From an uncultured delta proteobacterium (GTDB lineage: Bacteria > Desulfobacterota > Syntrophobacteria > BM002), in contig CAVQGX010000012.1 in the NCBI GenBank assembly GCA_963712115.1, forward strand, positions 10,839 to 74,838: a stretch of DNA of 64,000 nt, read 5' to 3'. Shown here in pieces: positions 16,078 to 57,578 of this stretch. Each line of letters starts with the position of its first letter. The stretch's first letter is position 1. The position numbers and the translations under genes were made by a program. The notes beneath the pieces were generated by a model. The model saw only the letters and a program-made list of their open reading frames with translations. It was not told where the DNA came from and ran no database searches.

Positions 16078-16348
16078 TGGGGAGGCATGGAGCAGAGGGT
16101 TGGAGGTTAGAGGAGCGCTGCGCTTGAGGTTGGAGGCAGGTCATTCTGGATTGCGGATTGAAGAGAGGCACAATGCTCAGGGCCCAAGGCCATTTGGGTC
16201 ATTCGGCTTCGCCGTCATTAGGTCACTACGCTACTCTGTCATTTGTTGTAATAGGGAAGGGCATGGTGCAATTTGGGATTTCGGATTTCGGATTTGGGAT
16301 AGGAGTCAGGCAAAACCGGCCAAACTGGCATAAACGGCAAACCGGCAT
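16078..16348 (+). repeat. Intergenic mosaic of short-repeat modules
   Basis: gcatgga, gttggag, gattgcg, gtcatt, gatttcg, aaaccggc modules; 16099-16170 nearly identical to 38910-38982. Confidence 0.85.
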
Positions 16349-16432
16349 TACCTTCCGGGTAATCACCCCTGGACTACCTTTGTCAAATGAGTATACAATA
16401 GCAATTGTATGCTCAGACCACTTGTCTCGCTT

Positions 16433-16468
16433 ATCTCGCGACAATAATTCGTGAAACATACGGGCTAG
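16433..16468 (+). mobile_element. Degenerate single end of the 184-bp MITE
   Basis: 'tctcgcgacaataattcgtgaaacatacgggctag' matches the MITE end 'tctcgcaacagcaattcatgaaacatccgggttag'. Confidence 0.6.
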
Positions 16469-16487
16469 AAAACTAGGAGGCGGCTGG

Positions 16488-16799
16488 ATGGACGAAAAAG
16501 ACAAACTGTCAGAAATCGAAAACTACCTCAAAGAGTTGTTTCCCGGATTTGTTATTGAGAACATGTGGAATTCAAAATCTCACCGACATGTGTTTAGTGT
16601 TGATGCACCCACTGGTGAAACAAAACATACTATAGCTGTCTCCAGTGAATTCGTCAGCGACAACGAACCGGACGATATCGTCATTTGTCTTAAATTATAT
16701 AATCTTAAGGGATATCTCGAAATATTTGGAAACAAAGAGGTTTTGGTAACCAACGATGGCATAAATCCGGATGGGATACGCCCTTCAATTTTGGCATAG
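16488..16799 (+). CDS. Hypothetical protein
   Basis: 103-aa ORF, RBS 'aggagg'. Confidence 0.7.
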   Translation: MDEKDKLSEIENYLKELFPGFVIENMWNSKSHRHVFSVDAPTGETKHTIAVSSEFVSDNEPDDIVICLKLYNLKGYLEIFGNKEVLVTNDGINPDGIRPSILA

Positions 16800-16894
16800 G
16801 GCATAGGGTAGATTGCGGATTTGGGATGTGCCAACCATTCGCCTAGCTCATTGCGTCAAACAGATAGCTTGCTACACACCTGCCCAGACGACCT

Positions 16895-16956
16895 ACCATA
16901 ATTTTACCAGTAAGCCCTCGCCGATGGTGGTACCCTGGTCGGTAGGGGCTTTTTTG
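16895..16956 (+). repeat. About 60-bp terminator-like hairpin element, copy 1
   Basis: 'accataattttaccagtaagccctcgccgatggtggtaccctggtcggtaggggcttttttg'; near-identical copy at 21450. Confidence 0.8.
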
Positions 16957-17057
16957 CGATTCATTTGATGAAACAGAATAAGAGGTGTGATAACTTGGAA
17001 ATCAACCGGTCTTGCGGGTTGGCATTGGCAATCTGGTAAGCAAAAACAGGGGAATAG

Positions 17058-54028: not shown

Positions 54029-54418
54029 ATGTTCAAAAAACATGTCCGCATATTCACTAAACCAAAGCCGAAATGGCCGATTTCCGCACAAGTTGGCGGT
54101 AGAGTAATCCACGGAGAAGCCAAAGACATCAGTCCTTTCGGGGCTTTTATCCGCTGCAGGAAGCCGCTTAGCCTGAATGAAATCTTTGACATGGTCGTTG
54201 ATACTCCAGATAAGTCTCTGAATATTCAAGCTGAGGTGGTGTGGTCTAACATTTACGGCCCTGATGATAACATTACACCCCGGGGAATGGGTGTTAGGTT
54301 TGTGAAAATCTCCCATGAAGACCGCAAACTCATTGAGAAAGAACTCGGCCAGTATGAATTAGGAAAAGAGGCAAGTGATTTTCTGGATACCCTGGAAATT
54401 GAGTTGGGCATAGATTAG
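54029..54418 (+). CDS. PilZ-domain protein (RxxxR motif not evident)
   Basis: 'DISPFGAFI', 'AEVVWSN', 'GMGVRF'. Confidence 0.82.
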   Translation: MFKKHVRIFTKPKPKWPISAQVGGRVIHGEAKDISPFGAFIRCRKPLSLNEIFDMVVDTPDKSLNIQAEVVWSNIYGPDDNITPRGMGVRFVKISHEDRKLIEKELGQYELGKEASDFLDTLEIELGID

Positions 54419-54572
54419 CGCTTAACCTGCCGCTGTCACAAAGAAAATTTCCCCCCAGTCAAAACAGTTTGCCCTTCGCTGCATCTTAAAATTTTTTTAG
54501 GCTTATCCTGCCAAATTGGTTCAAGCATTTACAATCACTACTGAATTTATTTCACTCAATCCATCCCTGCCC

Positions 54573-54588
54573 TGGTACAGACATTGCA
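54573..54588 (+). promoter_or_regulatory. sigma54 promoter
   Basis: TGGTACAGACATTGCA upstream of the OMP/protease pair. Confidence 0.6.
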
Positions 54589-54661
54589 TCTCCTAAGAAT
54601 CATTCCCGCAGCCCTTTGGCACTGATTACTTTAACAAAACTTATTCTGGAGAAACCGAAGG

Positions 54662-55585
54662 ATGTTCGAGAGGTTGCAAACCATCAAAGTCGTTGCAATG
54701 GCAGTCTTTTTGCTCCTCAGCCTGTTAACCAGGCCAGCTCTGGCCGTGCCGGTGACTGTTCACGGCGGTAAGGTGGTCCAACTAAATAAGCGGCAGGTCG
54801 AGCTGTTGAAACGACAGCCCACTATTTATTACCTCAAAACTGCTCCAGAGAAATTATTTAAACACTATTTTCTTGTTGAGTTGCCGGATGAGCTCGGGGG
54901 GGGATTCTTCCTTGCCAAACCTGCGGATATGGCGGCAGCGCTGGAGGAAGTTGGTGCTATTGAGAAGACAGAGGCGGCAAGAATGGCAGCTACTGCTCCC
55001 AGCAAAGAAACCTGGTTCGCGGACCTCTACTTGGGTGGAGTTGTGCCGGAGGACGGCAATGTTAATGGGGAAGCATCCCCATTCGGTGTAAGCATCAATG
55101 ACTCTGCCAAGGCCGATTACGACAACACCTATGTTGTTGGCGGCAGGGCGGGATTCTGGTCCCCGTCCACCCGCTGGCTGGGACTTGCTCTGGATGTTTC
55201 GTATTTCGAATTGGATGCAGAGGGGACAGAGACAAAAGTCTTGCCAGTATCGGCACTTGTAATGTTGCGCTACCCCGGGGATAGGCTGCAGCCTTATATC
55301 GGCATCGGCGCTGGCGTTTTTTTCACCGACACCGAGGTTGATATCCAGTTGAGTGGCGAGAACAAGAATTTTTCTGACACTGCAGTCGATTTCGGACTGG
55401 ATACCCGTGCCGGTCTGGCATGGAGGCTATTTAGACGTTTCGCCATATTCGGCGAGTATCGCTTCACTTACTATGAAGCTGACTACAGTGACAAAATTGA
55501 AAGCGGTGGTACGGAAACTAATGTGGATATAGAGATCAAGAACAAGGTTCATTATTTTCTCCTCGGGTTTTCTTACAGGTTTTAG
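54662..55585 (+). CDS. OmpA/OmpW-like outer-membrane beta-barrel with N-terminal extra domain
   Basis: Signal peptide; 'LQPYIGIGAG', 'IFGEYRF', C-terminal 'GFSYRF'. Confidence 0.8.
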   Translation: MFERLQTIKVVAMAVFLLLSLLTRPALAVPVTVHGGKVVQLNKRQVELLKRQPTIYYLKTAPEKLFKHYFLVELPDELGGGFFLAKPADMAAALEEVGAIEKTEAARMAATAPSKETWFADLYLGGVVPEDGNVNGEASPFGVSINDSAKADYDNTYVVGGRAGFWSPSTRWLGLALDVSYFELDAEGTETKVLPVSALVMLRYPGDRLQPYIGIGAGVFFTDTEVDIQLSGENKNFSDTAVDFGLDTRAGLAWRLFRRFAIFGEYRFTYYEADYSDKIESGGTETNVDIEIKNKVHYFLLGFSYRF

Positions 55586-55624
55586 AGCAACCGCGCTCAC
55601 GCTGGAGAGGCAAGCGAGGGTTTA

Positions 55625-57413
55625 ATGTTCAAAGTCCGCTTTGCGATAACAAAGCTACTCACTTTACTAATACCGGTTTTTGTCCTGGTGACAGTGACGG
55701 CGGCCACAGCTGGACAAAATAGAGAAAAGGGTAGAGTCTACAGATGGGGTGAAGAGAAATACCTCCGTAGCATTTTCAGTTCCAGCAAGGTCAGTCCCCT
55801 CGTTAGAGCGGTGAAGGAGAACATGGAAGCTCGGGGCATTACAGCAAAAAGTGCGAGAGCCTTTGGTGCTTCCGCCCTGTCGAACCCCCTGGTTAAGGTT
55901 GATGAGGATGGGAATGTTCATACCTACATTCGTGTCCTCACTTTTGGCAGTGCAGAAAGAGCTCAGCTCGAGGCCTACAACGCCGACATAGAGATAGTCA
56001 ATGAGGAACATGGCATTATTCAGTCCTGGATCCCCTTTGACATGGTCGACGAAGTGGCCCAGCTTCCCTTTGTCAAGCTGATCACCACTCCCGGCTACAG
56101 AGTCACCCGAATTGGCAGCGTAACCACGGAGGGCGACGTTGTTCTGAAGGCGGATCAGGTGAGGGGTCTTGGGTACGACGGCACCGGGGTGAGAGTGGGT
56201 GTTATTTCCGATGGGGTGGACAGCATGGCTGCTGCCCAGGGGTCAGGTGATCTTCCGCCAACTGTTATCATCCAGACTCATGCCGGCAGCGGTGACGAAG
56301 GCACCGCCATGTTGGAAATCGTTCACGATCTGGCGCCCGGGGCCGAGCTGGGATTTTGTGGACCCTCAACCAGCTTGGAAATGGTCACATGTGTGAATGA
56401 TCTGGCCAATATATATGGCGCGGACATCATCGTGGACGATCTCGGTTTTTTTGATCAAGCATTTTTTGAGGACGATTTTATAGCCCAGGCAGTGGCTAAT
56501 GTTGTGTCAAACGGTGTGTTCTACACTTCAGCGGCGGGAAACTCCGCCGAGACCCACTATCAGGGAGACTATGTTGACAGTGGGGACGGCCTTGGCAGCC
56601 ATCTGATAAGTGGCGTCGACAATGTGTTCAATGTCAACAGCCTCGGTAATGTCCGCATTTTCTTGCAGTGGTCCAATAGATTCGACGGAACTGCCAGTGA
56701 CGACTACGATCTCTGTCTACAGGGGGAAGACGCCGTGACCTGTAAGGCTTCGAATCTCACTCAAGATGGAGCGGGGGGTGATGATTGGCCCTGGGAGTGG
56801 AGATTTGAAGATTGCACTGGTGGTTGCAGCTTCCAAGTGCGTCTAGTAAGCGGAAACCCTCAGACACTAGAATTTTATGTCTTGGATATTGCAGCCCTGG
56901 ACGCTGCCGACCGAGTTGGCGCGGACTCCATCTTTGGCCATCCTGCGGTTGCCGGTGCAATTGCTGCCGCTGCTGTGGACCAGGCTACGCCAAACACTAT
57001 TGAATCTTTTAGCTCACGTGGACCTGTAACCATTCTATTTCCTGCCACAGAAATCCGCCAGAAGCCTGACCTGACTGCAACTGATGGTGTAACAGTCACC
57101 GGGGCAGGCGGGTTTCCGAGCCCCTTTTATGGCACTTCGGCTTCAGCCCCCCATATTGCCGGGGTTGCAGCCCTGTTGATGAGCGGAGGAAGAACGGCAG
57201 CGGCTGTAACAACTGCCTTGAGGCAGACCGCCGTGGGTCTCGGAGCTGCCACCACCTACGGTGCACGGGCGAATCGACGCCCTTGCGGCATACGGTTTCT
57301 TGCAGGGGGCACTCCAGTTCGAACTCCGCGTGGATGATGATGGCGGCGGTGGGAGCGACAATTTCTGTTTTATCTCCACAGCAGCCCATGGCTATCTAGC
57401 TGGCAGCTGGTAG
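55625..57413 (+). pseudogene. Secreted S8/S53-like protease with a 1-nt frameshift before a CFI-type C-terminal sorting motif
   Basis: 'VGVISDG', 'DEGTAM', 'SAAGN', 'GTSASAPH'. Removing one base at about 57263 gives 'YGHGRIDA...GGGGSDNFCFISTAAHG...*'. Confidence 0.8.
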
Positions 57414-57578
57414 ACCTTAGACTCCGCTCAGGACAAGCTTTCAGCCCTCAGAGATCAACTCGATTAAGTTCAAAGTTCCATGTTCAAGGTTCAAAGTTTA
57501 TTGACTAATTTAAGGACCATTTTAAACTTTAAACTTTGAACTTGACGCTATGCGCTTGGCGCCATGCGCTATGCGTTT
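57397..57578. repeat. Mosaic: REP-like unit, inverted (agttcaa)n/(ttgaact)n array, gcgctat module
   Basis: REP-like at 57415-57440; inverted array at about 57466-57543. Confidence 0.85.

Follow-up and report, generated by a model that had tools for sequence, protein, structure and literature searches.

The 64-kb window analysed here (positions 10839-74838 of contig C12 in the source genome, G000, 4.9 Mb in 70 contigs), from a non-phototrophic member of the Desulfobacterota, contains many intergenic spacers that are mosaics of short tandem arrays, with units of 7-9 nt, and small dispersed repeat units. The genes around them include core housekeeping functions: Pfam matches place typA/bipA at 14153-15994, tex at 17058-19319, lepA at 27500-29365 and glgB at 34503-36722, and further names include an extracytoplasmic function (ECF) sigma factor cluster, a histidine kinase, PilZ and FHA proteins, and an acyl-CoA-synthetase-like fusion. 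An initial annotation of this DNA had described about 20 such mosaics and interpreted them as footprints of a non-autonomous mobile or recombination system that accretes at gene 3' ends, separates unrelated accessory genes and may shuffle them as single-gene cassettes. The repeat mosaics themselves are confirmed. Their supposed place between accessory genes is not, since typA/bipA, tex, lepA and glgB are among the flanking genes, and several neighbouring genes have no array between them (23069-24339, 24960-26908, 30826-32169 and 54662-57337). We consider it reasonably probable that the mosaics are a local sample of genome- and genus-wide selfish or neutral repeats with fast turnover, resembling the short tandemly repeated repetitive (STRR) sequences of cyanobacteria, the intergenic heptamers of Xanthomonas and Nostoc and the repetitive extragenic palindromic (REP) and interspersed mosaic elements of E. 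coli, and accompanied by miniature inverted-repeat transposable elements (MITEs).

Tandem Repeats Finder (TRF) returned 69 repeat rows for the whole window. Merged arrays of period 7-9 number 44, all of them within 16078-57578, with none before and none after; the TRF rows outside this interval have periods of 12, 10, 12 and 6 only. Called genes contain 3 of the 44 arrays. The arrays fall into 15 of the 35 spacers of at least 20 nt (15995-16487 counted in), 12 of which hold at least two, and three further spacers (32790-33294, 33535-33881 and 53380-54010) carry dispersed units but no arrays, so that the earlier count of about 20 is a fair one. The modules listed at that time (gcatag/gcatgg, tcagagg, gatttcg, aaccggc, gttgattg, agagaatt, tcgttgaag, ttaccgc, ggagtaat and a CTTCGAC..GCTCAGGACAAG unit) were found again, in our spelling as GCATAGR/GCATGGR, TCAGAGG, GATTTCG, AACCGGC, GTTGATTG, AGAGAATT, TCGTTGAAG, TTACCGC and GGAGTAAT, together with a REP-like unit of the form CCCTTCGAC..GCTCAGGACAAGC. 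They are not a by-product of base composition: the 22 larger spacers (9612 nt) gave 1722 BLAST matches at other genomic loci, whereas five order-2 resamples gave 0, 0, 0, 1 and 0; 1041 of the matches extend over 45 nt or more, and 17 of the 22 spacers have at least one of this length. The flanks of the interval, 1-16 kb and 57.6-64 kb, had been called free of such repeats, which is correct for the arrays and incorrect for dispersed repeats, present in the first flank at 9977-10085, 10696-10868 and 12728-12789. Neither the TRF rows of the window nor its repeat families include a single unvarying repeat of about 24-48 nt that is separated by unique spacers at a regular period, and we agree with the initial annotation that the mosaics are not a CRISPR array.

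The first mosaic, delimited by TRF and repeat families, lies between typA, on the minus strand, and the open reading frame (ORF) 16488-16799 (16078-16350). It comprises an 86-nt block (16085-16170; second copy at 38897-38982), a 62-nt core marked by GTCATT (16198-16262), a GATTTCG array (16271-16300) and a AAACCGGC-type array (16309-16348); in contigs of close relatives from two public runs, positions 16173-16336 are replaced by 20 other letters. On the far side of the same ORF, a GGCATAG array followed by ATTGCGG/ATTTGGG units occupies 16793-16830 on the plus strand. The spacer after tex (19344-20030) contains an AGTCAGT array (19368-19394), a TGGAGTAA array (19529-19567), two copies of a 51-nt unit (19578-19676), an ATTTGGA array (19938-19962) and a REP-like unit GTCCTGAGCGGAGTCGAAGGG at about 19990-20015. 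After the ARPP-1 gene, CGCATAG, GGTCAGA and AACCGGCT arrays stand with a REP-like unit at 21236-21427, and a terminator-like hairpin follows at 21487-21504. Repeat families and folding delimit a palindromic mosaic between convergent genes at 24320-24561, in which a GCATAGA array, a TTGATTG/ATTAGTTG array, TCGTTAAAG nonamers, an ACCGCTT array, a REP-like unit, a GCTGTCA array and a CCCTATG array, the reverse complement of the first, follow one another; in the predicted fold the outer arrays pair, GCATAGR with CCCTATG units (z = -1.58). In two cases the stop codon of a gene is the TAG of a GCATAG unit: that of ORF 16488-16799 (16797-16799) belongs to the first unit of the GGCATAG array, and that of ORF 24070-24339 (24337-24339) lies inside the first array of the palindromic mosaic, so that the array abuts or overwrote the gene end. 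The G012 orthologue of the latter ORF likewise terminates in a GCATAG-type array. A stop-bearing unit repeated at period 7 closes all three frames within 21 nt.

Further along, a 184-nt MITE with inverted ends ACCCGGATGTTTCATGAAT and TA flanks (26906-27089) is followed at 27095-27462 by a TTTTGGA array (27095-27119) and another dispersed unit, about 290 nt long (27170-27462). A copy of the GTCATT core with degenerate repeats beside it and a hairpin GCGGAGCTTTGGCTCCGT followed by a T-run lies at 32873-33024 (77 hits), and a REP-like unit CCCTTCAACTCCGCTCAGGACAAGC with GCTGCYT and AACGGCC-type arrays at 33588-33725. TRF detects a CCATAAC array at 36889-36933. The mosaic after the nitroreductase gene (37932-38119) consists of TAATTAGT octamers, TCGTTGAAG-type nonamers, GGTAAAC units and an AGAGGTC array; in that at 38864-39036, the 86-nt block recurs as its second copy, together with a GCATAGA array (38864-38911) and an AGTCAGA array (39000-39033). 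Between this mosaic and the next lies ORF 39211-39435 (plus strand), which encodes a Cys-rich, apparently secreted peptide of about 74 aa. The mosaic after it (39440-39601) has CACTAGG, TTGATTG, ATTAGAGA and TCGTTGAAA arrays and ends in a terminator-like hairpin (39580-39601). Its segment 39488-39562 has an inverted counterpart, 92% complementary, at 44641-44823, where GGTAAAC, AATTCTCT, CGCTATG and AATCTAA arrays are also present. GAGGTCG and AATTACA arrays with dispersed units follow at 46049-46375. After the histidine kinase gene, the mosaic at 49475-49790 carries two copies of CCCTTCGA, a variant of the REP-like unit, a GTCATT core (49526-49590), a long predicted hairpin in which CAGAAG/CAGAGG units pair with CTGACAC/CTGAAAC units (z = -1.99) and, at its end, a terminator-like hairpin (49760-49775). 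TCGAATT and GCTGCCT arrays lie at 50252-50367, a second, inverted copy of the 184-nt MITE, 87% complementary to the first, at 53795-53978, and the last mosaic (57398-57575) combines a REP-like unit (57412-57457) with AAGTTCA, TTTAAAC and CGCTATG arrays. We also observed a 63-nt unit at 16892-16954 and 21447-21509 (87% identical) that ends in a GC-rich hairpin and T-run; this terminator-like module sits downstream of two unrelated genes. A related hairpin, GCGGAGCTTTGGCTCCG with a T-run, occurs at 33007-33024 and 39580-39601 and beside copies of the 62-nt core elsewhere.

The 16-57.6 kb interval is dense in arrays, yet it lies within the range of its genome. Across G000, TRF returned 4676 rows, 2115 of period 7, 426 of period 8, 541 of period 9 and 455 of period 14, against 87 of period 6, and the genome has about 3000 arrays. 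Relative to 3993 genes called from ORFs and a codon score (77% coding), arrays occupy 7.4% of the intergenic sequence and 0.4% of the coding sequence, and intergenic rows of period 7 number 1899, compared with 19 in an order-3 Markov copy. In 10-kb bins the mean is 6.3 arrays with a variance of 23; 421 of the 454 bins contain at least one array and 33 are empty. Of 539 windows of equal size, 9% hold at least as many arrays as the 44 of this interval, which places it at the 91st percentile, and empty runs such as 1-16 kb are ordinary. We therefore reject the idea of a local island.

Two layers make up the mosaics: short arrays of about four units, drawn from a few dozen families, and small dispersed units. 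The arrays are of narrow size (median 3.9 units, 90th percentile 5.1, maximum 17.4) and imperfect (median 83% matches), and their degeneracy is tied to position, as in runs of GCAnnGn, which have T at position 4 in 81%, A or G at position 5 in 98%, and A, G or C at position 7. Allowing one mismatch reduces the 792 canonical units to 378 seeds, and 58% of rows fall into 15 superfamilies. Families also follow one another in preferred orders: among 862 adjacent pairs of different families, nine pair types were seen 12-19 times, whereas in 200 label shuffles the commonest pair averaged 6.8 and never exceeded 11. One fixed combination, TCGTTGAAG nonamers with AATTAGTT octamers, occurs at 24358-24429, 37927-37998 and 39507-39578 and, inverted, at 44701-44775, and multi-module blocks (D5, D9 and I2) recur at 76-92% identity. 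The strongest regularity of the arrays is their inverted pairing. Where two arrays of one family lie 10-400 nt apart, 200 pairs are inverted and 31 direct, with a median gap of 35 nt in the inverted pairs (10th-90th percentile 17-124 nt). Their mean minimum free energy is -39.3 kcal/mol, compared with -22.2 kcal/mol for shuffles, as expected of inverted repeats; judging from the sequence, arrays paired about 20-90 nt apart could let the DNA fold as a hairpin or cruciform with a tandem-repeat stem.

In the second layer, the 62-nt core, GTCATT..GCCTTCGGC..GTCATT..GTCATTTGTTGTAAGAGGTAG, has 80 copies of at least 50 nt, with most positions more than 90% conserved. A 3-bp hairpin in it is kept by a C-G/G-C swap, and no further consensus fold was found; arrays of varying families stand on both sides, and its orientation shows no preference (37 versus 34). 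The elements at 26906-27089 and 53795-53978 have what is expected of MITEs by sequence, namely terminal inverted repeats, TA duplication, many copies and a putatively non-coding body: the 28-nt ends are 93% complementary with TA on both sides, the two copies have 136 and 149 overlapping hits, respectively, and k-mers of the ends have 72-84 copies. Many copies occur in G007, G012 and G016, related genomes that also carry dozens of copies of the unit of about 290 nt. A further repeat, ending in ATTACATCCCTTAATYCACA, was noticed at L050:8900-8960 and genome-wide (14-mers in about 60 copies in G000).

How far does the vocabulary reach? Three consecutive GCATRGR units occur at 220 places in G000, in all 17 other genomes of the genus and in none of 13 outside it in a set of 31 relatives, and a reversed control pattern gave 0. 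In G013, a closed, single-contig long-read genome of the genus, of which we sampled 400 kb (12% of its length; proteins have a median identity of 81% to those of G000), 201 rows of period 7 correspond to 5.0 per 10 kb, and 150 of its 278 arrays fall within the top 20 superfamilies of G000, where by our own estimate roughly a quarter would do so by chance. The sister genus, represented by G018, has 11 such rows in 200 kb, or 0.55 per 10 kb. Beyond these relatives the distribution is patchy: in a sample of the phylum, the GCATRGR pattern is present in 28 of 401 genomes and 20 of 254 genera, mostly in few copies. Two genomes of another family, G126 and G090, reach counts of 127 and 29. The first 160 kb of contig C1 of G126 (G126:C1:1-160000; L174-L181) contain 95 rows of period 7, or 5.9 per 10 kb, as dense as in the genus of the window; GCATRGR (19) and CAGAGGT (12) are common to G126 and G000, and its other families are its own, among which we noticed many of 9 nt, such as ACACTATGG. 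The pattern is also found in 50 stretches of IMG/VR that differ in G+C content, many at about 60%, and carry further heptamer families; these contigs are filed as viral and may be either viruses or host fragments. Several of them (L129, L130, L137, L150, L151, L159 and other loci, about 60% G+C) hold 5-10 heptamer arrays per 3 kb and combine GCATRGR with CAGTGTT- and CATGGTT-type units, a third lineage with the same habit. The stretch itself is present in metagenome runs from estuary, marine sediment and mangrove (shares 0.40-0.49 in four runs). A cyanobacterial origin is rejected, as the genome, 94% complete, has no Photo_RC match and the relatives of one window gene are all from metagenome-assembled genomes (MAGs) of Desulfobacterota.

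Comparison within the genus shows that the sites of arrays persist while their content is rewritten quickly and the vocabulary is retained. The 147 gene adjacencies common to G013 and G000 include 39 with arrays in both genomes, 16 with arrays in G013 only, 23 in G000 only and 69 in neither, so that array presence at orthologous spacers is conserved (odds ratio 7.3, p = 6e-8); the same superfamily is found in just 10 of the 39 spacers with arrays in both. Orthologous spacers in G012, G016 and G007 keep the promoter-proximal sequence with entirely different modules. In the tex region, G013 and G008 are 98% identical, and where one has a block of AAATCCG and CCCTATG units, the other has five GCGCCYT units instead; one edge of this homology block is the repeat ending in ATTACATCCCTTAATYCACA. 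Given that sites are kept, content is replaced and vocabulary is retained, independent slippage from random seeds is insufficient, and either copying between loci or selection on the units is needed. As a single observation, one DNA contig of run X1 has an AAAGACT heptamer inserted at 29347, near the 3' end of lepA.

We propose the following model for the arrays as selfish or neutral repeats. Units and multi-module blocks would be copied between intergenic sites at the DNA level, possibly through ectopic gene conversion where arrays have units in common, and/or by a putative enzyme that transposes small hairpin modules. Replication slippage may then lengthen and shorten the arrays. Selection probably clears them from coding DNA and from the region just before start codons, so that they would persist where they are least harmful, with a turnover faster than the divergence of the flanking genes. 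The arrays would thus not be the boundaries of mobile gene cassettes. Of the earlier interpretation as footprints of non-autonomous mobility, the part that stands is the existence of non-autonomous, dispersed and fast-changing repeats, given the blocks at 76-92% identity, the 80 copies of the 62-nt core, the MITE at more than 130 places and the replacement at 16173-16336; the part that does not is their local and accessory-gene-bound character, and the movement of genes is unsupported.

Several observations weigh against this model. The conserved presence of arrays, their narrow copy number and their position-specific degeneracy would also fit a function. Our gene calls are crude, and the assignment to superfamilies is permissive. 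No copying enzyme was found by scans for Y1 transposases, REP-associated tyrosine transposases (RAYTs) and multi-copy families. Matches to Y1 transposases occur in 24 of 31 relatives, array-free genomes among them, and G014, which has the most GCATRGR matches of this set, has none. The single RAYT of G000 (NF047646, 107 bits, cut-off 80; contig C20, about 238065-238560, minus strand) has inverted copies of GGGGCGGGGTTTATCCCCGCCCG on either side; the 12-mers of this sequence occur only about 4-8 times, and no heptamer arrays lie in the flanks of the gene. The association with RAYT genes that the initial annotation proposed as a check is thus not borne out, and a RAYT or IS200 element is rejected as the driver. 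Large transposase families are likewise rejected: transposase-like multi-copy families are few, one of seven members on reading, and none large was seen among the multi-copy proteins, on which no family search was run. As for hairpins, some are near-identical over their whole length at distant loci, and loops with at least three copies are found in 16 of 117 cases, compared with 22 of 351 control intergenic pieces; a second copy, in contrast, exists for 28 of 117 loops and 129 of 351 controls. The other 89 loops have none, which is no better than the control, and since most loops are unique, transposition of whole hairpins is not the main route.

Other explanations place the mosaics in different roles. 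That they arise from misassembly is next to impossible in our view: short-read contigs of public runs do end loose where repeats begin or stop, at 16198, 16271, 24320, 26905, 27085 and 27244, but the same kind of array occurs at equal density in the single-contig G013, GCATRGR arrays are present in the 17 other assemblies of the genus, and independent metagenome contigs enter or cross the mosaics; G013 and these contigs together exclude an artefact. The idea that the mosaics are junctions left by a recombination or mobile system in moving single-gene cassettes draws on the variation of gene order near the window by single-gene or small-block insertions and by order swaps without inversion. G016 has the order tex, parA-dnaJ, ORF21555, lepA; G012 and G007 lack 50409-53379 between 49791 and 54011; ARPP-1 adjoins typA in G007; window genes are scattered across G013; and near tex the 98% homology of G013 and G008 stops where an array or dispersed repeat starts. 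Some of the apparent breaks may, however, be MAG misassemblies at repeats, and in the sole systematic test, one 400-kb sample of G013 with limited power, arrays were not enriched at synteny breakpoints, where the initial annotation had suggested looking: 12 of 31 broken or loosened adjacencies carry them, compared with 55 of 147 conserved ones (odds ratio 1.06, p = 1). Synteny is mostly retained (147 of 178 adjacent orthologue pairs), core housekeeping genes are among the flanked genes, and arrays in G013 are equally common beside genes without an orthologue in G000 (44 of 112) and with one (59 of 129), which also leads us to reject the notion that array-free DNA is recently acquired. An integron cassette array is rejected as well. 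The only integron integrase above cut-off (TIGR02249, 486.9 bits, cut-off 265) lies on another contig (C27:2356-3300, plus strand, 2.3 kb from the contig end), and no constant recombination site between window genes appears among the repeat families, in keeping with the earlier statement that no attC-like structure was found, although no dedicated attC model was run. In the light of the breakpoint, orthologue and integrase results, the shuffling of cassettes is not supported, and we regard it as highly improbable. An action in RNA, as 3' untranslated region (3'UTR) stabilisers, terminator accessories or small RNAs, is suggested by five window mosaics with a stop codon on one side and a terminator-like hairpin on the other (16793-16947, 21236-21504, 39440-39601, 49475-49775 and 37932 to about 38296, the last judged by eye) and, weakly, by a contig from an RNA library that covers 33306-33797, DNA carry-over being possible in such runs, which consist of contigs and show neither strand, ends nor level. 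Genome-wide, however, arrays are not enriched ahead of the first strict terminator-like site (100 of 249 versus 91 expected, p = 0.24, in 103 spacers), which speaks against a place inside 3'UTRs, and terminator-like sites in the window do not exceed expectation from shuffles (17 versus 21.6 and 18 versus 21.5). Unit orientation is not tied to gene direction in tandem spacers (902:854), folding is as good on the sense as on the antisense strand (68:68 over 138 tandem spacers), with no RNA strand asymmetry, Rfam gave no family match at E <= 0.1, and the 62-nt core has no consensus fold beyond its 3-bp hairpin. These null results argue for a feature of DNA rather than an RNA element, and a role in RNA is in our estimation very unlikely. 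The claim that the repeats accrete at gene 3' ends finds weak support, in that array density declines from convergent (3.0 per kb) to tandem (2.5) and divergent spacers (1.8), but not in any preference for the position before terminators. Along spacers, the arrays are evenly spread except for the last tenth before a start codon (65, compared with 155-225 in each other tenth), and the G-rich version of units shows a weak replication-strand bias (373:305 versus 197:246 relative to the G-rich strand; odds ratio 1.5, p = 6e-4). The initial annotation saw the modules mostly in one orientation; across the genome, orientation biases are weak.

It is conceivable, if unlikely, that the arrays are working DNA sites, iterated and often paired on opposite strands, to which a nucleoid-associated or global regulator would bind, by analogy with proposals for Geobacter metallireducens in the part of PMC2700814 concerned with such sites. 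This would be consistent with the conservation of array presence at orthologous spacers, the copy number of about four, degeneracy that is fixed by position as in GCATRGR, the retention of the vocabulary across the genus and the inverted pairs. On the other hand, the family at a given site changes, many different binding proteins would be required for the dozens of unrelated families, the arrays have no orientation relative to genes and are sparser in divergent, promoter-bearing spacers than in convergent ones, and spacers with arrays are longer, so that positional conservation may partly reflect room. We also entertain, as quite unlikely, a putative DNA-level machinery that would write or copy heptamer arrays from a heritable vocabulary, typically as inverted pairs, and would, itself or in the form of its products, move horizontally among unrelated sediment Desulfobacterota and their viruses. 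Room for it is left by the occurrence of GCATRGR in 20 of 254 genera, the density in G126 compared with that in the sister genus, the 50 IMG/VR stretches of differing G+C content and the wholesale replacement between flanks of 98% identity.

Heptamer arrays have been known in cyanobacteria since 1990, when Mazel et al. reportedly described the STRR heptamers of heterocystous species. As in STRR sequences, several families of tandem heptanucleotides occur in G000, in arrays of few units, with intergenic copies in the hundreds to thousands and units typical of the lineage; units of about 7 nt are over-represented, intergenic and dispersed over the genome, and common to the lineage. Unlike them, the arrays described here reside in a non-phototroph, are built from other unit sequences and prominently include 8- and 9-nt families and fixed multi-module orders. 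The published STRR units, as we take them to be, are not among the top units of G000. Elsewhere, heptamer arrays have been noted in Xanthomonas, Beggiatoaceae and Geobacter, in accounts that, in their parts on these repeats, give no accepted mechanism or function (PMC4692102, PMC4679880, PMC2700814). In the relevant sections of Rehm et al. (2015; PMC4692102), which also mention STRR sequences, heptameric repeats are over-represented in intergenic DNA, GGGAATC in Xanthomonas and GGGGAYT in Nostoc, and some arrays form inverted pairs and are kept between the same genes with varying length and sequence. The likeness, as far as those sections go, lies in the intergenic period of 7, the convergent inverted pairs and the positions kept with varying content; the difference is that those repeats form one G-rich family with G-quadruplex potential, compared with dozens of families here, most not G-rich, in about 3000 arrays. 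The TAACTGA direct repeats of marine Beggiatoaceae, some Cyanobacteria and Bacteroidetes, as set out in portions of MacGregor (2015; PMC4679880), are also intergenic heptamers in 2-6 copies, patchy across distant lineages and with no transfer mechanism evident in those portions, but they consist of one unit in 169 sets, mostly a few nucleotides upstream of starts, whereas the arrays here belong to many families and are depleted before starts.

The closest architecture is that of G. metallireducens, a member of a related phylum-level group, for which the pertinent text of Aklujkar et al. (2009; PMC2700814) reports tandem sites built of hepta-, octa- and nonanucleotides and paired across opposite strands, proposed there as possible sites for IHF/HU-type regulators. 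The arrays in G000 likewise have 3-5 units of 7-9 nt and form two opposite-strand sites at variable distance; the G. metallireducens classes differ, so far as that text describes them, in having tens of copies each rather than thousands, and in their unit sequences. Apart from G. metallireducens, we found no report of such arrays in Desulfobacterota in the collection of papers searched. REP elements, bacterial interspersed mosaic elements (BIMEs) and REP doublet hairpins (REPINs), the last, according to passages of Bertels and Rainey (2011; PMC3116915), mobilised together with REPs by RAYT transposases, share with the mosaics, on the strength of those passages, short palindromic extragenic units in mosaics, hairpin doublets, a preference for gene ends, hundreds of copies and a non-autonomous nature. 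They differ, on the same footing, in being single palindromes of 20-40 nt rather than tandem heptamers; the RAYT of G000 is flanked by a different, low-copy REP and not by the repeat that it would be expected to mobilise, and G014 has arrays but no Y1 transposase match. The likeness to MITEs with TA target duplication extends to the 184-nt element and not to the tandem arrays.

Apart from the mosaics, the window holds a cluster of CHAT/adenylate-cyclase/TPR, CsgG/LpoB-like and GAF proteins at 1-12800. Its matches in five genomes of the genus are weak (short pieces at about 70%), and the cluster may be particular to this species. Longer repeats occur within two ORFs: two copies of a 174-nt unit (71% identity; 29513-29860) in ORF 29412-30797, for which Pfam gave no match, and 2.2 copies of a 102-nt unit (46659-46880) in ORF 46584-46910.

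What is the relevance of these arrays? Intergenic heptameric repeats as a kind are already known; new are the lineage that hosts them, how dense they are, how broad their vocabulary is and the pattern, measured here, in which the site is kept and the content replaced. If it were true, a horizontally moving machinery would provide a handle on the decades-old STRR puzzle. Because of the repeats, these genomes assemble into hundreds of contigs, and contig ends or local differences in gene order should be taken with caution rather than as biology. A genus of uncultured Desulfobacterota from marine and estuarine sediment carries arrays at cyanobacterial density, and with three single-contig genomes and many species-level genomes it offers a setting in which the rate of replacement, the inherited and transferred shares of the vocabulary and the genes that co-occur with the arrays can be measured.

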